This document shows, piece by piece, positions 34,601-59,095 of a DNA stretch of 64,000 bases; the stretch's first letter is position 1, and every line of letters begins with the position of its first letter. The DNA is from a phage. The translations under genes and the position numbers were made by a program. The stretch is taken from the sequence record PQ478073.1; one strand, given 5' to 3'. The notes beneath the pieces are model-generated. The model ran no database searches. It saw nothing but the letters and a program-made list of their open reading frames with translations, and was not told the origin of the DNA.

Positions 34601-35141
34601 CATTAACATCAATACGCTTGACTGGATTACCAAATTGGTTAGTACTGACAAATGAACTGTTCATTACTAGAATAAAGTTTTCATACCAGTTAGCATCCAT
34701 CGGGTCATTCCAACGAATAATTTTATCTTTTAATGATTCATTAAAACTATTACGAACATCTTGGTTTGTTTTAATTTCGGTTAATTTAGCAACTGCACGA
34801 CCTGGATATGAGCGGCGTGGTGAGTAAGAAATCATTTTAGCTAGTTTTAGTACTGATGCACGACGAGTTGCAGTATCTAAAAAGTTTTCACGTGTGTTCA
34901 AATCCATACGAAATGCCAAGTTCTGACCTAGCATAGAAATCGTATCTAAAATAAAAATAAACTGGTCGTTTTCGATCCAGTCATTGAATGAGTCTGGGTA
35001 AGTTGCACGTAGATAATCAATCATACTCTGACGGATAGTGTCGAAATCATAAGCTGTTAGATTGATTTTATAAAAACTTTCATATACTTGAGTCCAATCC
35101 TCACCAGCGTATAAATTTGATTGCCTTTTTTGTTGTGACAT
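31680..35141 (-). CDS. baseplate wedge protein, gp6 / Baseplate-J-like candidate (1153 aa)
   Basis: Sits immediately downstream of the gp25-like gene (the conserved gp25-gp6 / W-J order); AAGGA SD. The assignment is mainly positional. Confidence 0.45.
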   Translation of the reverse strand: MSQQKRQSNLYAGEDWTQVYESFYKINLTAYDFDTIRQSMIDYLRATYPDSFNDWIENDQFIFILDTISMLGQNLAFRMDLNTRENFLDTATRRASVLKLAKMISYSPRRSYPGRAVAKLTEIKTNQDVRNSFNESLKDKIIRWNDPMDANWYENFILVMNSSFVSTNQFGNPVKRIDVNGVSRQLYRMNTIPMTAPSIPFIATVNGESMTFEVVNPDITSVGVEERHPEPQEQKYIVYQNDGNGFSSPNTGFFVYFVQGTLTYQDYQYAIREENRIQDINVDNINETDVWVQEINEDGIVRTKWTKVPSMESIAYNTVNRQLKTIFAVTTRDKDQITIKYPDSRSGVVPRGTFRVWYRVSNGKTYNIKTSEIQNKSVKYTYRTKTQSSYESSTLDIRFSLQYESDRAQSAETIEQIKARAPQMYYTQNRFVNGEDYNIAPLSLGNTVLKSKAINRIYSGQSRFIDINDPTGKYQNTDVFSDDGALYQENTQFNRSLLLPTTKTNASIVIDNIQPLIGENAVIQRYQAYPSNTIGIEIQQAWTPVYNSNYTTNTYGRILGSSGTVYGSYQVGTLIKFSNSGTTIWASVVSVLDNGFYVLSTSVPSGMQAIEYILPYRTRFNTVEVQSISAMLDKKTDFVIVHDKETTSWVPIEASTNDDTIVYNGNEVLIIINVKYTAETWEFDANGIEYIFVGGEKVRFYFVSSKKITDISTGTVQSDKIEILSSNTTSSSNSGLTSNIDFQIYDTIQQENGYLDGSRVIVTSRKVDSNGIPLEPNQFKEIVPTWTGTDALKYGGILVFQENSDFTISVLSLPNDTFTLLDSSWSYTMEQALAEPNAYKRTEFVRNNAIRSTTLSGLYSKGSGFLVGFNYDGKYYFIEQTVGNNNDRLGQLISNLTYSDDTGTVSPELAFYRAINNMGTNADENQKLDYYGYKDVTSQYTVKTNARTSIDFHWKHYAPDDNRIDPSRTNLIDMYVLTNSYKTEVDVWLKNNAVGSIPKPPTSVELKDMFKDVEQKIVISDSIIWHSAEYLPLFGNSAAEDYKADFKVVKLPNSTMSDDEIRQNVIALTNEYFNVDNWDFGESFYYTDLCTYIHSQLGRHISTIVIVAQNPNSKFGSLFEIPSRSDQIFLSTASVENVQIVNSLAKSNINIGS

Positions 35142-35199
35142 AATTTATTCCTTTAAATCAGTAAAGTACTAGTTCAGTACTGGGAATTATATATAGAAA

Positions 35200-35206
35200 T
35201 ATTTAT
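35200..35206 (-). promoter_or_regulatory. candidate late promoter (ATAAATAT) for gp6-like gene
   Basis: Minus-strand ATAAATA(T) between the terminator and the SD of the 35141 start. Confidence 0.35.
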
Positions 35207-42292: not shown

Positions 42293-43132
42293 ATGACAAA
42301 TAGACCAAAGCGTAAAAAGTATCTCAATAATGCTGATTTACTTCGTGAAATACAAAAAAGTAAAATTTCATATTGCTGGTTATTAGACAAATCATATAGT
42401 ATGTATGATTATATTGTTTTTCATGAGTCAGAAATTACTGCTGAGTTACTAGAAAAAGCTAAGGCAGCACGAATTAAACGACTGAACAATGAAATGCTTG
42501 ATAGTATTCGTGAAAAGGAAAATATGAGTGCTAAAAAAGCTAAAGAATATGCAGATGAACACAATTTAGTTATCACTGACGTTCCAATTGATGAAGTTGT
42601 TATTCGTGTTATTACAGATGAACATATTCCACCAGATACTAGAGTTAACTTTGAACCATTCAAGCATTATATTGTAGATAATGAAGGTATTCTCTATGAA
42701 GTTTGTCGTTCTCACTGGAAAGGCGACCTTGAAACTGGTGAATTCAGTACTGTTCATGGTAAAATTACAAATGAACTTGGGAAGATGTTCATTAAACTTG
42801 CAGAGGAAATCTCACACAAATCTAATTACAGAAACTATACATACTTAGATGAAATGATGGGTGATGCAAGAATACAATTAGTTAAAAACGCACTTCTCTT
42901 TAAAGAGAGCATTCTTTATAAAAAAGATAAACCAGCAGTTCAGCTAAATCCTTTCTCTTACTATACATCATTCGTAAACAATAGTTTTCGTTCTATATTG
43001 AATAGTGAGAAAAATGTTCGAAATATACGTGATGATTTACTTGAAATGCATGGCTTTACGCCATCACATACACGTCAAATTGAAATTGAATTGAACATGA
43101 TTGAAAGGAAAAATGAAGATGGCTCTGTTTGA
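42293..43132 (+). CDS. 55: late-transcription sigma factor, gp55-like (279 aa)
   Basis: N-terminus KRKKYLNNADLLREIQKSK matches T4 gp55 (KPKYNYVNNKELLQAI); lies directly upstream of gp47/gp46 as in T4; ~90 aa longer than T4 gp55. Confidence 0.65.
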   Translation: MTNRPKRKKYLNNADLLREIQKSKISYCWLLDKSYSMYDYIVFHESEITAELLEKAKAARIKRLNNEMLDSIREKENMSAKKAKEYADEHNLVITDVPIDEVVIRVITDEHIPPDTRVNFEPFKHYIVDNEGILYEVCRSHWKGDLETGEFSTVHGKITNELGKMFIKLAEEISHKSNYRNYTYLDEMMGDARIQLVKNALLFKESILYKKDKPAVQLNPFSYYTSFVNNSFRSILNSEKNVRNIRDDLLEMHGFTPSHTRQIEIELNMIERKNEDGSV

Positions 43133-46317: not shown

Positions 46318-46340
46318 GGGAGCCTTAGCTCCCTTTTTTT
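46318..46340. terminator. bidirectional intrinsic terminator
   Basis: GGGAGC-ctta-GCTCCC hairpin with T7 run (46334-46340) on plus and an A-rich run upstream; overlaps the stop of the convergent minus-strand gene. Confidence 0.75.
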
Positions 46341-46816
46341 ATATCAACCATATTTAATTTACCGTCCTTAATCAGCTTTCTAGCTTGCTTTACACGAGCA
46401 GTAGTGTTACTACCAGGGACAACTCCTAACCCTTCCAGAATCGCGTTTTGCTGTGTTGCTGGAAGCCTTTTAAACTTATTAACATCCACAGTTAGTGCAG
46501 TGTGATGTATAACTTGTTCATCGTCAGGAATGCTGTTATTACGCTCTAAGTAATCAGCAAGATTTCTGAGTACCTCATATAATGGTTTATCAGTTAAGTG
46601 CTTCATATATCGATTGAAGCTGTTTTGTACCTTTCCTTCCCAAGCATTGACTTCATTTTGAAGAACTTGTCTACAATGTTGGTTACCATAGTGGTAGTGA
46701 TCCAGTACTGGTTTAGTTATTGGTTCTTTAATTATAGGATCTATTCCATTTTGTTTCTTTAGCAATTCGTTTCGATAGTTTGCAGCATCCTTACTATCTT
46801 TTAATCTTTTTTTCAT
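46325..46816 (-). CDS. Endo VII-like (T4 gp49 family) protein lacking the Cys4 zinc cluster (163 aa)
   Basis: Aligns by eye to T4 Endo VII: QNG; LDHYHYGN vs LDHDHELNG; NAWEG vs NAAEG; FNR; L.NL..YL. The CxxC...CxxC zinc-site cysteines are absent. Confidence 0.5.
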   Translation of the reverse strand: MKKRLKDSKDAANYRNELLKKQNGIDPIIKEPITKPVLDHYHYGNQHCRQVLQNEVNAWEGKVQNSFNRYMKHLTDKPLYEVLRNLADYLERNNSIPDDEQVIHHTALTVDVNKFKRLPATQQNAILEGLGVVPGSNTTARVKQARKLIKDGKLNMVDIKKGS

Positions 46817-46846
46817 AATTCCTCACCAAACTATTTGTTATCAAAA

Positions 46847-46854
46847 TATTTATA
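46847..46854 (-). promoter_or_regulatory. candidate late promoter (TATAAATA) for Endo VII-like gene
   Basis: Exact minus-strand TATAAATA ~30 nt upstream of ATG 46816. Confidence 0.4.
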
Positions 46855-48789: not shown

Positions 48790-48796
48790 ATAAATA
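48790..48796 (+). promoter_or_regulatory. candidate late promoter (ATAAATA) for head-module first gene
   Basis: CATAAATAT ~33 nt upstream of ATG 48829; a TATAAT hexamer also present at 48801-48806. Confidence 0.3.
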
Positions 48797-48828
48797 TTTC
48801 TATAATACATCTATTAAAAGGGAATGTT

Positions 48829-51033
48829 ATGGCTGGAAATACAAGTGATTACCTACTCCAGCAGTTGGTTAATCAAACTAAAGATAACAACGATAGTTTG
48901 AGTGCTATACGTGAGTTATTGGCTGAAAATATAAAAAATGATAGAAAGAAATCCGGTTCTAAAAGTGGAAAACGTAATGGAAGTAATTCATCAAGTTCTG
49001 GAAACCGTGGCTCTCGAACAAATAACAAAGCTGATGATGGTAAAGAATTTGGAAAAATATTCAAATCATTATCATCTGAAGTATCGAATGTCGGCAAAAC
49101 TATGATGAGTACGTCTGCAAACGTTAGCAATGTTGTAAACTCACTAGGAATGAGTGCATCTTCATTTGCTGGTTCATTAGCAATGATCCCAGGTCCAGTT
49201 GGTGCAGCAGCATCTGCATTCAAATTGGTTGCTGACGCTGGTTTAGCAGTTTATAATGTGTTAAATGCACAGCTTGAAGTTTATAATAGAATAAACAGTG
49301 CTGGTGTCGCTCTATCTGAAGGTTACGGCTCCATATTAAAAGGTGCTGGTGCATCAATGATGAGTATTGATGCATTTGGTGAAGCATTACAAACTCATAG
49401 TGCCGTTGTTGCACAATTAGATGGTGCATATGGTGATGGTGTTTCTACATTTGGTAAATTATTGGGTACTGTGCAACAAGCACAAAATCAATTAGGTTTA
49501 TATGGTGTTTCTCAAAAAACATTAACTGATTTAACTGCACGTAATATTAAATTCCAAAAGCAATTTGGTGGAAGAGAAATGTTACGTAGTATGGATCAAG
49601 CAAAAAGTACTGAACAGTTTATCATGAGTATGACTAAGTTCAGTAAAAGTATGGGTGAGTCAGTTGATGCACTATTAAATAAAACACAAAACTTAGATAA
49701 ATCATTAGACACACGTTCAATGCAAATCGCATTACAAAACTATTCTGGATTATCTAGTAAAGCAGCAGTTGCAACATCAAAAGCATTTAACGAAGCTGCT
49801 GCCAGTATGGGTGATGCTGGTGCAGATTTTCTACGTTTAATTTCACATCGTTTAACTATTGGTGGAGTACCAGATGATTTATTGACTCCAGTACTGAACC
49901 AATTTGCTGATTTAGGTGAGAACTTGGTACGTAGTGGTGTTACTGATTCACAAGAAATTCGCCGTCAACAATTGGAATTTGTTAAAAAGAACAAAGAACT
50001 AATAAAGCAAGATTTATTAAATCAGATACAATTAGGAAACACTACGGCAGCAACCTTCAACCAACAACTACTTGATATGGAAGCTGCGATTAATGATCCT
50101 AAGAGTCAACCAGCAGATAAACTAACACAATTCACTGATAGATTCAATAGATGGATTAGTAAAGAATTTACTGAACCATTTAATAAAATGTATGCAGATA
50201 CACAAAATTCTATTGCGGATTACCTTACTGATATTGCAGACCGTACTGATGGTGCATGGGAATTTATCGGAGAGTTAGCACTTGATGGTTTTGGTTTGGT
50301 TCCTATTGCGAAAGATGCAGTTGCGTATTTGGATAGGATTGGTGGTGAGTTTGAGCAGTGGTTAGAAGGGTTAGGTACTGAAATTTTTGGTAGTGGATAT
50401 AATAAAGTTTCAGAAGCATTTGATAGCTTTATGAATAACCTAATGGATCTTCCTGGTAAACTTTGGGATTCTGTTAAAGGTTGGTTTGGTGGATCAGACG
50501 ACAAAGTAAAAGTAGAAAACAATTCTGTTACCGATGGTGCAGAAAAAGTTAATAATTATTTTGAAGAAAAAATGAATTCATTTGGTGATTATATTTCTAG
50601 TTCATTTGATGGTTTTTTAAAATGGAATTCAAGTAGAAACTTTAAACAACCAAAACCCCTTGATGAATCAGTTGCTGAAAAACTTATTAGTAGTGGTCTT
50701 GAAAATAAGCCAAGAGCAACTGCGAGAATCGAAAAATCTGAACATGTTGCACCATATGTTACCATAACTCCAAAAACTTTTGATAAATCAGCATGGGGTC
50801 CAAATGAACCACCAATTCAAGCTGAACCGGACGATTATGAGGCCATGAAAGCGATGATAAATAGTGGTAGTAGTATGGCAAATGCTAATAATAATGCCAC
50901 AATATCAGAAGACATGAAAGAGTTACTTAAAAAACTTGCTGATGTTAATGAGCAATCTCTATCTGCCGTGCAACAGACAAATAACTATCTAAGAACTATC
51001 TCTGAAAACACTCAAGGTGAGAGAAACAGTTAA
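48829..51033 (+). CDS. hypothetical virion-associated protein, Ala/Gly-rich helical (734 aa); possible tape-measure or internal protein
   Basis: Low-complexity basic/Ser N-terminus (GSKSGKRNGSNSSSSGNRGSR), long alpha-helix-type A/G/L/Q composition; directly upstream of the portal with the portal SD overlapping its stop. Confidence 0.35.
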   Translation: MAGNTSDYLLQQLVNQTKDNNDSLSAIRELLAENIKNDRKKSGSKSGKRNGSNSSSSGNRGSRTNNKADDGKEFGKIFKSLSSEVSNVGKTMMSTSANVSNVVNSLGMSASSFAGSLAMIPGPVGAAASAFKLVADAGLAVYNVLNAQLEVYNRINSAGVALSEGYGSILKGAGASMMSIDAFGEALQTHSAVVAQLDGAYGDGVSTFGKLLGTVQQAQNQLGLYGVSQKTLTDLTARNIKFQKQFGGREMLRSMDQAKSTEQFIMSMTKFSKSMGESVDALLNKTQNLDKSLDTRSMQIALQNYSGLSSKAAVATSKAFNEAAASMGDAGADFLRLISHRLTIGGVPDDLLTPVLNQFADLGENLVRSGVTDSQEIRRQQLEFVKKNKELIKQDLLNQIQLGNTTAATFNQQLLDMEAAINDPKSQPADKLTQFTDRFNRWISKEFTEPFNKMYADTQNSIADYLTDIADRTDGAWEFIGELALDGFGLVPIAKDAVAYLDRIGGEFEQWLEGLGTEIFGSGYNKVSEAFDSFMNNLMDLPGKLWDSVKGWFGGSDDKVKVENNSVTDGAEKVNNYFEEKMNSFGDYISSSFDGFLKWNSSRNFKQPKPLDESVAEKLISSGLENKPRATARIEKSEHVAPYVTITPKTFDKSAWGPNEPPIQAEPDDYEAMKAMINSGSSMANANNNATISEDMKELLKKLADVNEQSLSAVQQTNNYLRTISENTQGERNS

Positions 51034-52784: not shown

Positions 52785-52857
52785 ACATAAATAACAGTGT
52801 ATAAGAATGAGGGTTTATTTTTACCCTCATTTATAATGCATATTTCAAGGAGATCAA

Positions 52858-53085: not shown

Positions 53086-53137
53086 ATCAAAAATCGCACT
53101 TTTTAAAGCTTTTAAAAAAGGCGATTTTATTCAGTAC

Positions 53138-53153
53138 TAAATAATATCATACT
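53138..53153 (+). promoter_or_regulatory. candidate late promoter block (C)TAAATAATATCATACT
   Basis: 16-mer TAAATAATATCATACT identical to the block upstream of the major capsid gene (55902-55917); sits after an AU-rich hairpin (53091-53127) and 34 nt before ATG 53187. Confidence 0.45.
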
Positions 53154-53186
53154 TTATACGAATGTAATATATCTATGGAGGATATA

Positions 53187-54035
53187 ATGGCGAATTTAAA
53201 ACTACTACAAGAAGCAATTGCGGCGTTTGCAAATGGCGAACAAGATATTGCTGATAAAAAAATGCGTAAGTATTTCGTTGAGCAAGCTCAAGAAATTAAC
53301 AAACAACTAGAAGAAAGCATGGAAGATGAAGACGACGATGAAGATTGTGAAGTCGAAGTTAAAGTCAAAGATGAAGAAAAGCTTGACGAAGATTTTGATG
53401 TACAACCAGACGAAGGTCTAAATGCTGAAATCGAATACACCCTTGGTGAAGAAGATGAAAGTGCAGAAGAAGAAGTTGAATTCTCTGCTGATGCAGATGG
53501 TGACGGTGAAGACGATGTTGACGTTGAAGTGAAAGCTGATGCTGATGTTCCTTCCGAAGACCAATGGGAATCAATCCAAGATGCTTTCCGTGGCCTACAA
53601 CAAATGTTTGATGAAATCGGTGACGGTGAAGTTGATCTAGATTCTGAAGAAGAAGTAGAAGATAGCGAAGAAGAAGTTGGCGTTGACGGTGACGACGAAT
53701 TTGCTGATGTTGAATTCGGTGATGAAAAATTCGGTGAATCCTTCAAACTAGAAAAAGTTGCTCCAGTTGATAAGAAAGAAAAAGCTGGCACTCATTCCAA
53801 ATCTCCAGTAGCACCAGAAGCTAAATCTCCAGTAGCAGGAGCAGAGCCAGTTAAATTCGCTAAGAAAACTGACCAAGCACCATTACTAGACCTAGATGAT
53901 AAATCTGTTCTACCAAAAGATAGTCTAGATCTTGGTAAAAATGCTCGCGGTGAAATGAAAGATGTTAAAGCACCAAAAACTACTGCATCTAATTCTAAAT
54001 CACCACTAAGCAAAGCACAACCTAAACTAAAATAA
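53187..54035 (+). CDS. highly acidic prohead core/scaffold protein (282 aa from ATG 53187)
   Basis: Extreme D/E content (EDEDDDEDCEVEVKVKDEEKLDEDFD...); GGAGGATATAATG start context mirrors the capsid gene (GGAGATATATAATG). Track start is 53175. Confidence 0.6.
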   Translation: MANLKLLQEAIAAFANGEQDIADKKMRKYFVEQAQEINKQLEESMEDEDDDEDCEVEVKVKDEEKLDEDFDVQPDEGLNAEIEYTLGEEDESAEEEVEFSADADGDGEDDVDVEVKADADVPSEDQWESIQDAFRGLQQMFDEIGDGEVDLDSEEEVEDSEEEVGVDGDDEFADVEFGDEKFGESFKLEKVAPVDKKEKAGTHSKSPVAPEAKSPVAGAEPVKFAKKTDQAPLLDLDDKSVLPKDSLDLGKNARGEMKDVKAPKTTASNSKSPLSKAQPKLK

Positions 54036-54038
54036 ATA
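54032..54038 (+). promoter_or_regulatory. candidate late promoter (ATAAATATCTG) for protease gene
   Basis: ATAAATATCTG, shared 11-mer with the 54692 site, overlapping the upstream stop codon. Confidence 0.3.
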
Positions 54039-54055: not shown

Positions 54056-54679
54056 ATGAGTAGTATGATTCGTGAATGGTCTTCATTCAATGATTCTAAA
54101 GTTGTTTTGGAACATCGTGATAATGGATTTGGTGGGCGTGACTGCTATCTTCGTGGTATTGCTATTCAAGCCGACCAACGAAATTTGAACGAGAGAATTT
54201 ACCCTTTATCTGAAATTACAAGGGCAGTAAATAACATGAACCAGCGTTTAGCTAAAGGTGAAAGCATTCTTGTTGAATGTGACCATCCAGAAACACTAAC
54301 TATTAACCTAGACCGAGTAGCAGCAATGATTACTAAGGTTTGGATGGAAGGTGCTAATGGTATGGCAGAAATCAAACTACTTGATACTGCACATGGTCAA
54401 AATATCCGTAAAATGCTAGAGGCTGGTGTAAAACTTGGTGTAAGTTCTCGCGGTTCCGGTAACGTTGATTATAATGGAATAGTTTCTGATTTTGAAATTA
54501 TCACTATTGATATTGTTGCTCAACCTAGTGCTCCAGAAGCATACCCAACAGCGGTATTTGAATCTCTGATGAGTAAGTACGGATCACCTTGTAATAGTTC
54601 TAAAAAAATCACTGAATCTAAAAAAGTAAATAATTTAGATTCTGAAATATACGATTTTTTCAAGAAATTAAAAGGTTAA
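54056..54679 (+). CDS. 21: prohead core protease, gp21-like (207 aa)
   Basis: LVECDHPE and VSSRGSG resemble T4 gp21 VELGHP and FSMRGLVS; position between core proteins and scaffold. Confidence 0.7.
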   Translation: MSSMIREWSSFNDSKVVLEHRDNGFGGRDCYLRGIAIQADQRNLNERIYPLSEITRAVNNMNQRLAKGESILVECDHPETLTINLDRVAAMITKVWMEGANGMAEIKLLDTAHGQNIRKMLEAGVKLGVSSRGSGNVDYNGIVSDFEIITIDIVAQPSAPEAYPTAVFESLMSKYGSPCNSSKKITESKKVNNLDSEIYDFFKKLKG

Positions 54680-54690
54680 CATTTTAAAAA

Positions 54691-54721
54691 TATAAATATC
54701 TGTATGTTGAAGTACAGATAT
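54691..54721 (+). promoter_or_regulatory. candidate late promoter TATAAATA overlapped by a 9-bp palindrome
   Basis: TATAAATA 54691-54698; perfect inverted repeat ATATCTGTA-N8-TACAGATAT (54696-54704, 54713-54721) spanning the -10 element and the expected start site. Confidence 0.4.
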
Positions 54722-54745
54722 TTCAGTACTTAAAGGAGAGAACGA

Positions 54746-55861
54746 ATGTCTAAATTAGAAAAGCTTCTAAAAGAATCATCTCTTTCTGATGAGGCAAAAC
54801 AGCTAATTCAGGAAGCATGGAATGAAGAAAAGAATACACTAGCCGCAGAGATGCGTGAAGAAATGAAAGGCCGTTATCAGCAAGATTTGGCTGAACTAAC
54901 CGAAGGTTTGAACACTATGGTTACTCAAGTCATTGCTGAAGAAATGGGTGCTGTATATGAAGAGAAAAAACGTCTCGTTGAAGATCGTGTAACTCTACGT
55001 AAAACACTAAGCAATTTCTCTGCGTTTTCAAACTCTGTTTTGGCTGAAGAAGTTAAACAAATGCGTAAAGAACGTAAGCATCTTCATGAATGCATGGGTA
55101 AATTCGTTAATTTTTCTAACGGTATCCTAGCAGAAGAGCTAAAAGAATTCCACACTGAAAAACGTCAACTAGTTGAAACTCGCGTTAAACTACTTGCTGA
55201 AGGTTCACGTCAAATTGCTGAAGCTCGTAATAACTTCATCAAACGTACATCTGAAAGTGCTGCTAAATATATTGCAGAAACCACTCAGAAGAATCTATAT
55301 GCGTTGAAACAAGATCTAGTGGAAGCAAAACAAAATATGTTTGGTCGTAAAATCTTTGAAGCATTTGCTCAAGAGTTTAATGTCAAACAATTTAATGAAA
55401 ACTCATTGCTACGTTCCCTAACTGAATCAATTAAATCTAAAGAAGATGAAATTGCTCAAGTTAAGCAAGAACTACATGAAACTGCTAATGCCGTTAAAGC
55501 TGCTAAAACCAAACTACGTATTATGGAAGATGCACAAGCACGTAATGCGATTATGTCTGAACTAGTAAAACCACTAACTGCACAGCAAAAACAAATTATG
55601 GAATCCCTTCTAGCTACTTCACCTACTGAAAAGCTTAAAGAAGATTTCAGCAAGTACCATAAGTCAGTACTTAACGGTACTAAAGTAAATGAATCTGCTA
55701 CCACTCGTCAAGCAGTTCAGTCTTCCGCTAAGAAAACTCTTGCAGAAGGTAAAGTAATCACTGGCAACCGTCAGGCTATTGTTGAAAGCGAAGAAATGAC
55801 CGCTGACGATATGGCATTCCTAAAAGAACTCGATGTTCTTTCAGGTATCAATAAAAAATAA
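54746..55861 (+). CDS. prohead scaffold protein, gp22-like (371 aa)
   Basis: A/E/K/L-rich heptad-like coiled-coil composition; immediately upstream of the major capsid gene. Confidence 0.6.
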   Translation: MSKLEKLLKESSLSDEAKQLIQEAWNEEKNTLAAEMREEMKGRYQQDLAELTEGLNTMVTQVIAEEMGAVYEEKKRLVEDRVTLRKTLSNFSAFSNSVLAEEVKQMRKERKHLHECMGKFVNFSNGILAEELKEFHTEKRQLVETRVKLLAEGSRQIAEARNNFIKRTSESAAKYIAETTQKNLYALKQDLVEAKQNMFGRKIFEAFAQEFNVKQFNENSLLRSLTESIKSKEDEIAQVKQELHETANAVKAAKTKLRIMEDAQARNAIMSELVKPLTAQQKQIMESLLATSPTEKLKEDFSKYHKSVLNGTKVNESATTRQAVQSSAKKTLAEGKVITGNRQAIVESEEMTADDMAFLKELDVLSGINKK

Positions 55862-55899: not shown

Positions 55900-55917
55900 T
55901 ATAAATAATATCATACT
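55900..55917 (+). promoter_or_regulatory. late promoter TATAAATA plus conserved 16-mer, for major capsid gene
   Basis: Exact TATAAATA (55900-55907) 45 nt upstream of ATG 55953; the same TAAATAATATCATACT block occurs at 53138-53153. Confidence 0.55.
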
Positions 55918-55952: not shown

Positions 55953-57128
55953 ATGTCACAACTACTAAATGAATCCAAATGGGTAGCAGTAAAAGAGAAA
56001 CTAGTTGAAGGTCTACAGGGTACTCGTAAGTCTGTAATGGAAACTGTTCTTGATAACCATCGTAAAGTTATGCTAACTGAATCCGCAACTTCTGGTGCAA
56101 CTACCGCTGGTAACATCGCTACTCTAAACAAAGTGATTCTACCAATTATGCGTCGTGTAATGCCAACCGTTATTGCTAACGAAATCATCGGTGTTCAACC
56201 AATGACTGGTCCAGTTGGTCAGATCCACACCCTACGTGTGCAATATGCTGATAACGCACCTGGTGTTATCGCTGGTGAAGAAATGCTTTCTCCATACAAA
56301 ATCGCTAAATCCTACTCTGGTGATCTAAATGCGGATAATAGCAACCCACAAGCTGCTCCTACTAGCCAACTAGAAGGTACTATGGGTCGTCGCGTTAACA
56401 TCCGTATTCTACGTGAAACTGTTGAAGCGAAATCTCGTCGTCTATCTGCACGTTGGACTGTTGAATCTGCACAAGATGCTCAATCCCAACATGGTGTTGA
56501 CGTTGAAGCAGAACTAATGGCTGCAATCGCTCAAGAAGTTACCGTAGAAATCGACCAAGAGCTACTAAGCCGTCTACGTGCACTACCTGGTGCTGCTGCT
56601 GTAACTTATGACCAATCTAAAGTTACTGGTGTTGCAACCTTCGTTGGTGATGAGCACGCTGCTCTAGCAACTCTAATTAACCGTCAAGCAAACGAAGTTG
56701 CTCGTCGTACTAAGCGTGGTGCTGCAAACTGGGCTGTTGTTTCCCCAACTGCACTAACCATTCTACAATCTGCTACTACTTCTAGCTTTGCACGTACCAC
56801 TGAAGGTACTTTCGAAGCACCAACTAACGTTAAGTTTGTAGGTACTCTAAACAGCACTATGCGTATTTTTGTTGATACTTATGCAAGTGATGCAGAAGAT
56901 ATTCTAATTGGTTATAAAGGTAATGCAGAAACTGATGCTGGTGTGTTCTATTGCCCATACATCCCACTAATGGCTTCCGGTACTGTAATGGACCCTAACA
57001 CTGGGGAATTGGTCACAACTTTCTTAACCAGGTATGGTTATGTTCAGTTGACCGATAGCACCAGTTCACTAGGTAACGCTGCGGACTACTACAGCAAAAT
57101 CGCTATCAAAAACGTTACTTTCATGTAA
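55953..57128 (+). CDS. 23: major capsid protein, gp23-like (391 aa)
   Basis: RRVMPTVIANEIIGVQPMTGPVGQIHTLRVQYA vs T4 gp23 RRAIPNLIAFDICGVQPMNSPTGQVFALRAVYG; VEAKSRRLSARWTVESAQD vs IEAKSRQLKAAYSIELAQD; YKGNAETDAGVFYCPYIPL vs YKGPNEMDAGIYYAPYVAL. About 130 aa shorter than T4 gp23. Confidence 0.92.
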   Translation: MSQLLNESKWVAVKEKLVEGLQGTRKSVMETVLDNHRKVMLTESATSGATTAGNIATLNKVILPIMRRVMPTVIANEIIGVQPMTGPVGQIHTLRVQYADNAPGVIAGEEMLSPYKIAKSYSGDLNADNSNPQAAPTSQLEGTMGRRVNIRILRETVEAKSRRLSARWTVESAQDAQSQHGVDVEAELMAAIAQEVTVEIDQELLSRLRALPGAAAVTYDQSKVTGVATFVGDEHAALATLINRQANEVARRTKRGAANWAVVSPTALTILQSATTSSFARTTEGTFEAPTNVKFVGTLNSTMRIFVDTYASDAEDILIGYKGNAETDAGVFYCPYIPLMASGTVMDPNTGELVTTFLTRYGYVQLTDSTSSLGNAADYYSKIAIKNVTFM

Positions 57129-57174
57129 TTGTAATAGATTTAAAAGATTTAATCAAAAAAAAATAAAAACAATA

Positions 57175-57204
57175 GGGACTCTTCGGAGTCCCTTTTCTTT
57201 TTAT
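57175..57204 (+). terminator. strong intrinsic terminator after capsid gene (UUCG tetraloop)
   Basis: GGGACTC-ttcg-GAGTCCC followed by TTTTCTTTTTATT. Confidence 0.85.
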
Positions 57205-57214
57205 TAAAAAACCC

Positions 57215-57243
57215 TTGACACAATGTTCTGGAATGTATATAAT
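57215..57243 (+). promoter_or_regulatory. consensus sigma70 promoter (TTGACA-17-TATAAT)
   Basis: -35 TTGACA 57215-57220, 17-nt spacer, -10 TATAAT 57238-57243; ATG 57276 lies ~26 nt downstream of the predicted start site. Confidence 0.7.
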
Positions 57244-57275: not shown

Positions 57276-58373
57276 ATGCCAAACGTAAGTATCAACAAAG
57301 AAGAGTTTATCAGCAAAATGACTGCTAAGTATGGTGAATTTGATTTCAGTACTTTAGTATTCAAAGCAAGTAAGACAACAGTGAAATGTAACAAGTGTGG
57401 AAAAGAAAACACCAAACCTGCACTTCGTCACATTGCATGTACATGTGCATCATGTTATTCAAACATGTCACAACGTTCAAACAACGACACATTCATCAGT
57501 ACTATAGAAACTAAATTTGGAAAAGATAAATTCAAATTTGATAAACTAAATTACACTAATGCTATATCAAAAGTAACAATTTTCTGCACAGATGAAGATC
57601 ACAATGATTACTTTGAAATTACACCCAATAAATTTCTTTCTGGTAAAGGATGCCCCGTATGTAATAAAAATGAAGCATACAGTACTGAAGAGTTCAAAGA
57701 AAAAGTAAAAGATAATTATGGTGATTTATTGGATTTAACTAACACGGTGTATGTAAATCAAAAAACTAAAGTAACTGTGTATTGTAACGCAGGTAATCAT
57801 GAATGGACAGTTGATCCAAAAACTTTACTTGTTGGTAAGACTGGATGTGGTACATGCTCCGGTAAAGGCGGTCGAAGTACTGAACGTTTCATTGAACTTG
57901 TGTCGCCTATCCATAACCATAAGTATGATTATAGCTTGGTGGATTACAAGACTAGTGATGAACATGTGGATATTATTTGTCCTGAACATGGTGTCTTTAA
58001 ACAAATACCCAAATCTCATATGGCAGGAAGAGGATGTCCATCATGTGGTGAGTATGGTTATCAACCATCAAAGCCTGGATATTTCTATGTACAAAAACTA
58101 TCTAATAACTCAAAAGTCGTTTACAAATACGGAATTACCGGAGACATGAAGAGACGAATTCATGAACAAAGTCGCAATTCTGAGTTCGAGCATGAATTAC
58201 TGGTAGAACGTTACTTTGAGGATGGTAATAAACCATTATTATTGGAAAAGTTTATCAAGCAATACATTGAAAGTGGTGTTGTAAGTACTGAAGAGTTACC
58301 GTCAGGATTTACTGAAACATTTGATGCTAAGTATCTTGAAAGTGTTTTAGAAATTGTAAATACTTTTAAGTAA
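57276..58373 (+). CDS. tandem zinc-ribbon protein with C-terminal GIY-YIG-like (T5orf172-type) domain (365 aa)
   Basis: Four repeats of C/H...CxxC modules (CNKCGKEN...CTCASC; CTDEDH...CPVC; CNAGNH...CGTC; CPEHG...CPSC); C-terminus GYFYVQK...VYKYGITGDMKRRIHEQ... matches the GIY...YIG..R pattern (~58077-58373). Confidence 0.55.
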   Translation: MPNVSINKEEFISKMTAKYGEFDFSTLVFKASKTTVKCNKCGKENTKPALRHIACTCASCYSNMSQRSNNDTFISTIETKFGKDKFKFDKLNYTNAISKVTIFCTDEDHNDYFEITPNKFLSGKGCPVCNKNEAYSTEEFKEKVKDNYGDLLDLTNTVYVNQKTKVTVYCNAGNHEWTVDPKTLLVGKTGCGTCSGKGGRSTERFIELVSPIHNHKYDYSLVDYKTSDEHVDIICPEHGVFKQIPKSHMAGRGCPSCGEYGYQPSKPGYFYVQKLSNNSKVVYKYGITGDMKRRIHEQSRNSEFEHELLVERYFEDGNKPLLLEKFIKQYIESGVVSTEELPSGFTETFDAKYLESVLEIVNTFK

Positions 58374-58396
58374 ACAATCTAAAGGAGTTGACACGG

Positions 58397-58747
58397 ATGT
58401 TAACTGTATACAAATTTAACAAAGAAGAGTACTTAAAGAGTCAGTACTCAAATATAGAAATAAATGTTCCTTATGGTACGTTAGTTGGATATGATGAAGC
58501 CACTGAAACATTGTATTATAATGATGATAGATTGGATTATAGTTTAGATTCATTCATTGAAGATATACTTAATACACATACTGAAGATATGTTGTATGAA
58601 GAATACATAGACCATTATAGAGAACGTATGTCGGTGCTGCATTCTGATGCTCCTGTACTAAACATAGCACAAGAACCATCGGAATTTCAGCCACATAATC
58701 CTTTTCAACGTTTAATTGATATTGGTTTAAAATTCACTATTAGTTGA
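58397..58747 (+). CDS. hypothetical acidic protein (116 aa from ATG 58397)
   Basis: Track start 58388 is TTG; ATG 58397 lies 9 nt after an AAAGGAG SD; product unknown. Confidence 0.45.
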   Translation: MLTVYKFNKEEYLKSQYSNIEINVPYGTLVGYDEATETLYYNDDRLDYSLDSFIEDILNTHTEDMLYEEYIDHYRERMSVLHSDAPVLNIAQEPSEFQPHNPFQRLIDIGLKFTIS

Positions 58748-58750
58748 TAG

Positions 58751-58779
58751 ATAAATATCTCCATATTAATGATGGAGAT
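58751..58779 (+). promoter_or_regulatory. ATAAATATCT late-promoter-like motif followed by an 8-bp inverted repeat that includes the SD
   Basis: ATAAATA 58751-58757; ATCTCCAT-N7-ATGGAGAT (58757-58764, 58772-58779) with GGAG inside the 3' arm. Confidence 0.35.
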
Positions 58780-58786
58780 TGAATCT

Positions 58787-59095
58787 ATGTCACAGATATG
58801 TTATGTTATAATAAACTCTGCATGGCCTGACTATGTTAAGATTGGTTTCACTTCTAAATCTGAAATGACAGAGCGTTTGAGAACGTATCAGACAGCTACC
58901 CCGTTTCGTGATTTTGAAGTTTATCATGAAGTTCACTTTGAAGACGCACGTTTAGCTGAAAAAGAGATACATAAAAGGCTTAAACAAATGAATGCAACTA
59001 GACAACCAAACACAGAGTGGTTTAAAATGTCTAAAAAGATAGCAGCAAACATCATTGATTCTGTGTGGGATGATATGGATAACGACTTGCTATAG
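58787..59095 (+). CDS. stand-alone GIY-YIG-like (T5orf172-type) domain protein (102 aa from ATG 58787)
   Basis: ICYVIINSAWPDYVKIGFT...ERLRTY...EIHKRL...EWF matches the T5orf172/GIY-YIG-like pattern. Start choice (58769, 58772 or 58787) is uncertain. Confidence 0.55.
   Translation: MSQICYVIINSAWPDYVKIGFTSKSEMTERLRTYQTATPFRDFEVYHEVHFEDARLAEKEIHKRLKQMNATRQPNTEWFKMSKKIAANIIDSVWDDMDNDLL

Follow-up and report, generated by a model that had tools for sequence, protein, structure and literature searches.

What do two perfect palindromes do when each of them runs into a late promoter? The question is raised by a 64,000-nucleotide stretch of phage DNA from sequence record PQ478073.1 (here "the window", whose numbering is used throughout, with features on the plus strand unless stated otherwise). 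Site 1 lies at 54694-54723, between the genes for the prohead protease and the scaffold, and site 2 lies at 58757-58779, immediately before a small gene for a T5orf172 (GIY-YIG-like) protein. We consider it probable that both palindromes are the DNA image of hairpins in plus-strand RNA, each with its 5' arm fused to a T4-type late promoter, and taken as a whole this is the best explanation we have. A late start at the 3' end of the 5' arm would have a simple consequence, namely, that RNA initiated upstream can form the hairpin and RNA from the embedded promoter cannot. The analysis shows the sequences themselves, how far they are conserved and covary, the statistics of the promoter boxes, and the predicted folds; from these we infer the timing of expression, the start sites, the effect on translation, and the roles of two hairpins at site 1, A and B.

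A predicted hairpin over the Shine-Dalgarno sequence of the T5orf172 gene

Site 2 consists of ATCTCCAT (58757-58764), seven further nucleotides, and ATGGAGAT (58772-58779). In RNA these would be the anti-Shine-Dalgarno (anti-SD) arm, the loop (58765-58771), and the 3' arm of a hairpin that sequesters the Shine-Dalgarno (SD) sequence of the T5orf172 gene, GGAG at 58774-58777. The segment folds at -8.5 kcal/mol (z = -3.05), and in the predicted fold of a longer piece, 58735-58800 (-14.2 kcal/mol), the GGAG is in the stem and part of the AUG is in an outer helix. The gene starts at ATG 58787 (MSQI..., kept in all relatives), not at 58769, the mechanical start of its open reading frame (ORF). The record of phage UE-S1 uses the upstream ATG equivalent to 58769, which falls within the hairpin loop and has no SD sequence (locus L016, 11469-11795); 121Q and other records use the conserved MSQI ATG, equivalent to 58787.

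The T5orf172 leaders of 16 annotated relatives and six IMG/VR contigs gave 15 distinct sequences from at least five genera, with Asteriusvirus, Mimasvirus, Eneladusvirus, Salmonella and Klebsiella phages, and metagenomic contigs among them. The SD sequence lies inside the stem in all 15 variants, and RNA with the promoter box included has minimum free energies (MFEs) of -7.6 to -13.4 kcal/mol. The two arms change together, as CUCC/GGAG, CUUC/GGAG (with a G.U pair), CUUCC/GGAGG, CCUCC/GGAGG, CUCCC/GGGGG, CCCC/GGGG, and UCCCA/UGGGA, and the loops vary in length and sequence. Position 3 of the SD sequence forms a U-A pair in four variants and a C-G pair in seven. These compensatory changes across genera support the original prediction, made from the sequence of the window, that a stem holding the GGAG gates translation of this gene.

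All 15 variants also have a late box at the same place, [A/G]ATAAATA or, in one metagenomic contig, ACTAAATA, and in all of them the pyrimidine-rich anti-SD arm begins -1 to +2 nucleotides after the box. In the window the box is GATAAATA (58750-58757). It extends over the first base of the 5' arm. With its predicted +1 at A58763, two nucleotides of that arm remain in the transcript. RNA from the predicted +1 of the variants has an MFE of 0 to -4.5 kcal/mol. The mean unpaired probability of the SD sequence is 0-0.2 in read-through RNA of the 15 variants; for predicted late RNA, 14 of them have values of 0.3-0.84 and the other has 0.12.

The original prediction missed both the late box on the hairpin and a sigma-70 promoter upstream of it. 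Together with the stem, these two elements would make site 2 a temporal gate of the T4 e/I-TevI type. An intrinsic terminator after the capsid gene (57174-57193; an 8-bp stem with five G-C pairs, then TTTCTTTTT) ends the late head operon, and equivalent capsid-gene terminators are found in the relatives examined. It is followed by a consensus sigma-70 promoter, TTGACA-17-TATAAT at 57215-57243, which matches at 12 of 12 positions in a promoter scan. This promoter would drive the genes at 57276-58373 and 58388-58747 and read on into the T5orf172 gene; a terminator scan found no plus-strand terminator between the promoter and 58787. Most relatives examined have a terminator and then a sigma-70-like or TGAAACG-type promoter at the same place, and one TGAAACG-type promoter has been placed upstream of CBB_258 (PMC5259590).

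We can now suggest how the gate would work. RNA from the sigma-70 promoter at 57215 would cross two genes into the T5orf172 gene, where the GGAG and part of the AUG region would be locked in the stem, leaving this read-through RNA silent in translation. After replication, late RNA starting at about A58763 would lack the anti-SD arm and be translated, so that the T5orf172 nuclease-like protein would be made late only. On the predicted folds, site 2 would thus be a temporal translational gate that confines a nuclease-like protein to the late period.

Late promoters and the factor expected to read them

This proposal depends on the late promoters. The window carries a gene for a gp55-type late sigma factor (42293-43132, 279 amino acids), which matches PHROG 12791 ("sigma factor for late transcription"; E = 3e-154) and PHROG 234 ("late sigma transcription factor"; E = 8e-18), and its product is the expected reader of ATAAATA promoters. 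ATAAATA occurs 18 times in the window, and 17 of these copies are intergenic, co-oriented, and directly 5' of a gene. The longer form TATAAATA is rarer than expected (6 copies versus 11 from shuffles), and all six exact copies are intergenic and just 5' of co-oriented genes with a good SD sequence. One of them is the scaffold promoter (54691-54698), whose box is invariant in 12 relatives. It is very probably a real late promoter, and on this point the original prediction is borne out.

ATAAATA has been put forward as the putative late promoter of phages CBB and GAP32 by Buttimer et al. (PMC5259590), and a gp55-like factor has also been noted for CBB (PMC5259590). The T4 late box occupies positions -13 to -6 (PMC1524935), and its -13 base is variable, being the least conserved position (PMC2988020). 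Since the T4 box lies at -13 to -6, we applied that spacing to both boxes, which would place the late starts at A54704 for the scaffold gene and A58763 for the T5orf172 gene.

Some other late boxes in this region deserve mention. The leaders of a structural gene at about 53187 (53137-53154) and of the major capsid gene (55902-55917) share an identical stretch of 16 nucleotides, TAAATAATATCATACT, which covers the late box and the initial transcribed region; the box reads ACTAAATA in one and TATAAATA in the other. The promoter-leader module may have been duplicated here. Twelve nucleotides separate the late box at 52787-52793 from a perfect 9-bp hairpin of higher G+C content on its 3' side (AATGAGGGT-N8-ACCCTCATT, 52806-52831), which would sit at about +8 to +33 of late RNA from that box. 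This hairpin might be a genuine 5'-proximal one, or else it might mark where the portal message ends.

Two predicted alternative folds in the scaffold leader

Site 1 had been described as a 9-bp inverted repeat, ATATCTGTA (54696-54704) and TACAGATAT (54713-54721) with eight nucleotides between them, overlapping TATAAATA at 54691-54698. We confirmed the repeat and its overlap with the promoter, though the full perfect repeat is 11 bp rather than 9 (AAATATCTGTA-N8-TACAGATATTT, 54694-54723), or 12 bp with a closing U.G pair. The corresponding RNA structure is hairpin A, with its 5' arm at 54694-54704, loop at 54705-54712, and 3' arm at 54713-54723. There are five perfect inverted repeats of at least 11 bp with loops of 3 to 12 nucleotides in the window, versus 0.28 expected from 100 dinucleotide shuffles, and the others that were inspected resemble G+C-rich terminator stems. 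The 30-nucleotide segment of hairpin A folds at -11.8 kcal/mol (z = -6.15), and none of 200 shuffles was as stable.

In an alignment of 12 distinct versions of the protease-scaffold spacer, 96% of the cells of hairpin A are paired, versus at most 64% in controls with a slid partner. Both palindromes are thus conserved in relatives, as the original prediction would have it, hairpin A at this level in 12 relatives and the site 2 stem in 15 of 15 variants. In four sequences one pair of hairpin A has changed from C-G to U-A, and two others have the U.G intermediate; four more pairs vary, solely as U-A/U.G or C-G/U.G. This covariation is modest. All 14 wobbles take the form U.G on the plus strand, and none of the cells is A.C. 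Such an asymmetry between the strands argues for a helix in plus-strand RNA over a symmetric protein-binding site or a cruciform.

The 5' arm of hairpin A runs from inside the promoter box, which holds half of it, to the predicted +1, A54704, its final base. With a start at the end of the arm, the scaffold's own late RNA cannot contain hairpin A, and an earlier suggestion that the palindrome forms a 5'-terminal RNA hairpin does not survive, as only the last base of the arm would be transcribed. Hairpin A would be formed only in RNA begun upstream, at the protease or portal late promoters. The nearest source of such read-through RNA is the protease late box (ATAAATA, 54032-54038), which is intergenic and co-oriented, and the ATAAATA boxes at 52787 and 48790 are also able to feed RNA into site 1.

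Overlapping hairpin A, and mutually exclusive with it, is a second stem, hairpin B (54710-54731), in which AAGUAC (54710-54715) pairs with GUACUU (54726-54731). It ends just 5' of the scaffold SD sequence. Hairpin B is 100% paired in the 12 relatives, with two pairs varying as A-U/G.U. Its predicted probability is about 0 in read-through RNA of 11 of 13 variants and 0.66-1.0 in late RNA of 12 of 13; the range for those 12 becomes 0.64-1.0 once RNA with A's 5' arm replaced is counted too. A contig with 64% protease identity (L022) keeps an A/B-like pair made of different sequence. We predict that hairpin B is the 5'-proximal stem-loop of the scaffold late mRNA, and site 1 is best described, on these models, as a pair of alternative leader folds that are conserved and depend on the promoter.

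What might such a pair do? Its most likely role would be to give the two classes of transcript different ends. Hairpin A would serve as a structural barrier on the 3' side of the protease message, or as a processing boundary, and hairpin B as a stabilizing 5'-proximal stem-loop on the abundant scaffold message. We have low confidence in these roles of barrier and stabilizer, which we infer from predicted folding.

A role in masking the scaffold SD sequence was considered as well. That sequence, GGAG at 54735-54738 with the start at ATG 54746, as read from the DNA, is clear of hairpin A, which ends 11 nucleotides 5' of it. We rejected site 1 as an SD gate, including a three-element switch of A, B, and an anti-SD element, on predicted accessibility that shows no consistent dependence on A, and for the same reason no direct translational effect of hairpin A is supported. 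A long-range pairing in one MFE fold of site 1 has an ensemble frequency of 0.016. A leaderless mini-ORF at the predicted +1 (ATG 54704 to TAA 54731-54733) was also rejected; its ATG is absent in most relatives.

More distant relatives in IMG/VR (40 contigs with 48-64% protease identity) mostly have no intergenic late box, and their protease and scaffold genes are nearly contiguous. At the protease/scaffold junction of many of these (loci L023-L061), a CTCC...GGAG complement spans the last protease codons and the scaffold SD sequence, e.g., aagCTCCgataaaaataGGAGaatcacATG. This may be a different, small stem that masks the SD sequence.

Other explanations for the palindrome at the scaffold promoter

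Hairpin A might instead part the low-copy message of the protease from the high-copy message of the scaffold, acting as an RNase processing site, an attenuator, or a weak intrinsic terminator, its overlap with the promoter being incidental. Several features fit: the hairpin lies 15 nucleotides past the protease stop codon, is present solely in RNA from upstream, is stable at -11.8 kcal/mol, and has an AU-rich single-stranded tract on its 3' side. However, it was not among the calls of the terminator scan, only two of its pairs are G-C, and its three U residues are all within the stem. The genuine terminators of this phage are GC-rich with long U tracts, as at 57174-57193, and the sequence 3' of the hairpin in relatives (UAUCAG..., UAAG...) is not U-rich. 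As for processing, RNase III requires an extended lower helix, and this is not conserved. The long helix of RNase III type that we tried at site 1, a 22-nucleotide imperfect extension, was rejected on its lack of conservation in relatives. We regard this family of explanations as unlikely, while keeping it in mind.

The original prediction also offered site 1 as an operator for a dimeric regulator. A phage or host protein bound across the -10 box and start site would then switch the scaffold late promoter. A perfect 11-bp palindrome centered on the promoter/start region and kept in several genera is what such a protein might require, and there is a precedent in T4 DsbA, which binds AT-rich sites overlapping late promoters (PMC2988020). 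The half-sites, however, diverge asymmetrically, with the 14 U.G cells of the plus strand (A.C on the other) and one change of C-G to U-A, a pattern expected for RNA pairing and not for protein contacts with symmetric half-sites. Neither is the half-site repeated. The window has no other exact copy, one-mismatch matches number 31 versus 32 expected, and the palindrome is absent from all other late promoters of the window. No cognate regulator was identified, although this is an indirect test. An operator at site 1 therefore seems improbable, and the earlier suggestion is not upheld.

Somewhat less probable again is an RNA operator, in which hairpin A or B would be bound by a translational repressor or autoregulator, like the hairpin about 40 nucleotides 5' of the T4 gene 43 start. 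The gp43 operator of T4 has been described (PMC3014915), the hairpin here likewise lies about 40 nucleotides 5' of the scaffold AUG, and the loop AUCAA(G/A)A is nearly invariant in Mimasvirus, Eneladusvirus, and the Salmonella and Klebsiella phages. However, the clade of the window itself has another loop (UGUUGAAG), no protein emerged as a candidate binder, and the absence of A from the main scaffold late transcript would limit such a repressor to read-through RNA. An Rfam 15 scan of the whole window gave no matches at the gathering score.

How general is the design?

If promoter-embedded arms control the T5orf172 gene, are they used elsewhere? We surveyed 214 kb, made up of the window and 150 kb of 121Q, and found 27 ATAAATA promoters with an identifiable leader. 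The pairing probability between the SD sequence and the box or discriminator is at least 0.4 at 5 of the 27, versus 2.35 expected when promoters and leaders are permuted, and at least 0.8 at 3 of the 27, versus 0.46 expected. These counts indicate that the gating design is used at a subset of promoters only. Site 2, with a pairing probability of 1.0, is the clearest case among the surveyed promoters as judged from predicted pairing. That it is a chance 8-bp repeat, or merely a pyrimidine-rich discriminator (ATAAATA-TCT...) near a purine-rich SD sequence with no regulatory role, is the least probable of the alternatives we weighed: about 16 such repeats are expected in the window, T-rich or pyrimidine-rich bases follow many late boxes, and 9% of permuted promoter/leader segments still show the pairing, but here the anti-SD arm and the SD sequence covary across lineages as the loop drifts in length and sequence, and the stem is kept in every variant.

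Two other late boxes, at 48790-48831 and, on the minus strand, at 35141-35206, both ATAAATATTTCTATA..., have discriminators that pair with the downstream SD sequence at predicted probabilities of 0.86 and 0.92, respectively. The first precedes a structural gene of 734 amino acids and the second a gene of 1153 amino acids. Relatives of the 48829 gene have matching changes in the arms, UUCCUA/UAGGAA in A4, AUCUUU/AAGGGAU in JNE01, and AUUCU/AGGAAU in 7t3.

It is tempting to see promoter-embedded arms as a general sensor of transcript origin, with hairpins A and B tuning the stoichiometry of protease to scaffold and anti-SD arms insulating the T5orf172 gene and the structural genes at 48790 and 35206. 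We hold this wider view tentatively and think it rather unlikely as it stands. If it is true, RNA of the same gene folds differently depending on its promoter, so that stability, processing, or translation is set for each class of RNA.

Evidence that weighs against the proposed hairpins

The degree of confidence in promoter-embedded RNA hairpins differs between the two sites, and a number of observations count against them. At site 1, a single pair carries the covariation of hairpin A, which falls short of significance in a shuffle control (68 of 500). Promoter function constrains the 5' arm as well. By deletion, RaK2 has lost A's 3' arm and the whole of B, which means that the A/B element is dispensable. 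The predicted accessibility of the scaffold SD sequence is 0.5-0.75 in most lineages, and removal of A's 5' arm brings no consistent change. The GUACU of hairpin B copies AGTACT, a motif over-represented genome-wide, so its conservation may have another cause. Hairpin B would also leave about six 5' nucleotides unpaired, whereas protective 5' stem-loops usually leave fewer.

At site 2, 8-bp repeats are common by chance, with 31 observed in the window versus 16.2 expected; the repeat is unremarkable alone, and the case for it therefore rests on conservation and covariation in relatives. The late RNA predicted for the window itself has an SD sequence that is just 0.34 unpaired, and the box there opens with G instead of T. 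At both sites, the +1 positions are extrapolated from T4, and we found no data on transcription starts, transcripts, or protein timing for Rak2-like phages in the literature searched.

The phage, its gene neighborhood, and its motif biases

The 5.4 kb around both sites shares 95.8-98.8% identity with jumbo phages of Escherichia that belong to the genus Asteriusvirus (CRJP21, UB, JP4, and 121Q). By this identity, the window is from an Asteriusvirus (121Q/PBECO4-like) jumbo phage of the Rak2-like group. Remoter homologs are found in phages of Salmonella, Klebsiella (RaK2), Cronobacter (GAP32), Pectobacterium (CBB), Yersinia, Serratia, Erwinia, and Xanthomonas. About 95% of the 64-kb window is coding.

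The local gene order is portal (gp20-like), a 75-amino-acid ORF, a structural protein, prohead protease, scaffold, and major capsid protein, followed on the 3' side of the capsid gene by an HNH/T5orf172-like endonuclease, a 119-amino-acid ORF, the 102-amino-acid T5orf172 protein, and a tail fiber. The protease gene (54056-54679, gp21-like) has a Pfam Peptidase_S77 match, and the scaffold gene (54746-55861, gp22-like) has a 121Q ortholog annotated as a gp22-like scaffolding protein. The major capsid protein gene (gp23-like) is at 55953-57128, the HNH/T5orf172-like endonuclease gene at 57276-58373, and the 119-amino-acid ORF at 58388-58747.

The T5orf172 gene (58787-59095) encodes 102 amino acids that match PF10544 (T5orf172; E = 3e-13, 50.5 bits against a cut-off of 20), PF13455 (MUG113; E = 8e-13, 49.2 bits against a cut-off of 22.3), and PHROG 15085. 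By these profile matches, the product belongs to the T5orf172/GIY-YIG-like nuclease superfamily, and RefSeq names the 121Q ortholog "GIY-YIG nuclease family protein." Apart from RaK2 itself, the Rak2-like phages examined all have the gene conserved at this one place. The larger endonuclease gene at 57276-58373 varies from 918 to 1659 bp across Asteriusvirus and is absent from GAP32, CBB, and the Yersinia phages, which suggests that it is a mobile homing-endonuclease cassette beside the conserved small T5orf172 gene.

Two short motifs are unusual in their frequency. GCGC is absent from the 64-kb window (0 versus 58.7 expected from base composition) and from each of the homologous loci of 13.8-15.6 kb (L001-L014; 0 versus 11-19 expected), i.e., from 14 of 14 Rak2-like phages of at least five genera. 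It looks as if the whole clade avoids a site of restriction type. AGTACT is 5 to 6 times over-represented, with 119 sites in the window versus about 21 expected (e.g., 54725-54730 and 35165-35181), and CAGTACTG is 27 times over-represented; both excesses are also found in all relatives. The Ser-Thr dipeptide is not enriched in the window (133 versus 127 expected), and AGT-ACT encodes 73 of these 133, versus 22.8 expected from codon usage. The density of AGTACT is similar in intergenic and coding DNA, the major capsid gene has none, and 121Q encodes a tRNA-Ser(ACT). Altogether, the AGTACT excess points to selection at the level of DNA or codon pairs.

Significance

These findings would extend the classical T4 device of a hairpin with an embedded late promoter to a distantly related group, the Rak2-like jumbo phages, for which, as far as the literature we searched goes, a gating hairpin has not been described before. 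The covariation at site 2 is unusually clean across at least five genera. The analysis also settles 58787 as the place where the T5orf172 gene starts, predicts late-only production of a conserved nuclease-like protein, and makes testable predictions of late starts to the single nucleotide, at A54704 and A58763. The scaffold leader would be a simple natural example of two mutually exclusive RNA folds that depend on the promoter. Current concepts of phage gene regulation are unchanged; the mechanism is the textbook one of T4, and the finding is in this sense fairly ordinary.

Comparison with known systems

I-TevI and SegB, two of the known systems that bear on site 2, are GIY-YIG enzymes. How closely, then, do the sites resemble the regulated genes of T4 and its kin? 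T4 e, soc, 49, and I-TevI, together with mobE of Aeh1, have an inhibitory helix over the ribosome-binding site in RNA initiated upstream, as reviewed by Uzan and Miller (PMC3014915). In the same class, late promoters in the DNA coding for the helix's 5' strand yield translatable RNA, and T4 segB is included by implication (PMC3014915). At the level of sequence, site 2 agrees with the e/soc/49/I-TevI/mobE class in every respect, having a sequestered SD sequence, a late promoter in the 5'-strand DNA, an upstream non-late promoter, and a gp55-type factor, as read or predicted from the sequence.

The lysozyme gene e of T4 has its SD sequence in the stem of the upstream RNA and a TATAAATA-type promoter in the 5'-strand DNA (PMC3014915), as we propose for site 2. 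It differs in that the phage here is a Rak2-like jumbo phage, with an ATAAATA core and a T5orf172 nuclease-like gene, and the arrangement here is predicted from sequence. T4 soc and gene 49 combine a late promoter with a sequestered initiation region for non-endonuclease late functions (PMC3014915), and the further candidates in the window, at boxes 48790 and 35206, likewise stand 5' of structural genes. Gene 49 itself offers a contrast, in that its homolog in the window has a TATAAATA box and no gating hairpin. This endonuclease VII (T4 gp49) gene lies on the minus strand at 46325-46816 (region 46325-46854), with the exact box 30 nucleotides 5' of its start codon, and it is adjoined by SbcCD-like (gp46/47) genes and the late sigma gene.

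There is a likeness also to I-TevI (the td intron ORF), mobE, and segB, where read-through gives early or middle RNA of a nuclease-family gene but only late RNA is translated, owing to a hairpin at the ribosome-binding site whose 5' part adjoins a late promoter (PMC3014915). The T5orf172 domain is annotated as a member of the GIY-YIG family, and an HNH/T5orf172-like endonuclease gene stands just upstream of the small gene here. Unlike the homing endonucleases, the putative nuclease of the window is encoded by a gene for 102 amino acids at a fixed position, with no sign of mobility and without a DNA-binding extension.

For site 1, the nearest model is of another kind. Stem-loops at the 5' terminus, e.g., that of the ompA leader, stabilize mRNAs of E. 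coli and its phages, and hairpin B resembles them in being conserved and predicted near the 5' end of an abundant late mRNA. It differs from them in its approximately six unpaired 5' nucleotides and in standing at a predicted start. Site 1 does not have the sequestered ribosome-binding site that defines the T4 gating class, but it shares with that class, and with site 2, the common principle of an arm embedded in a promoter.

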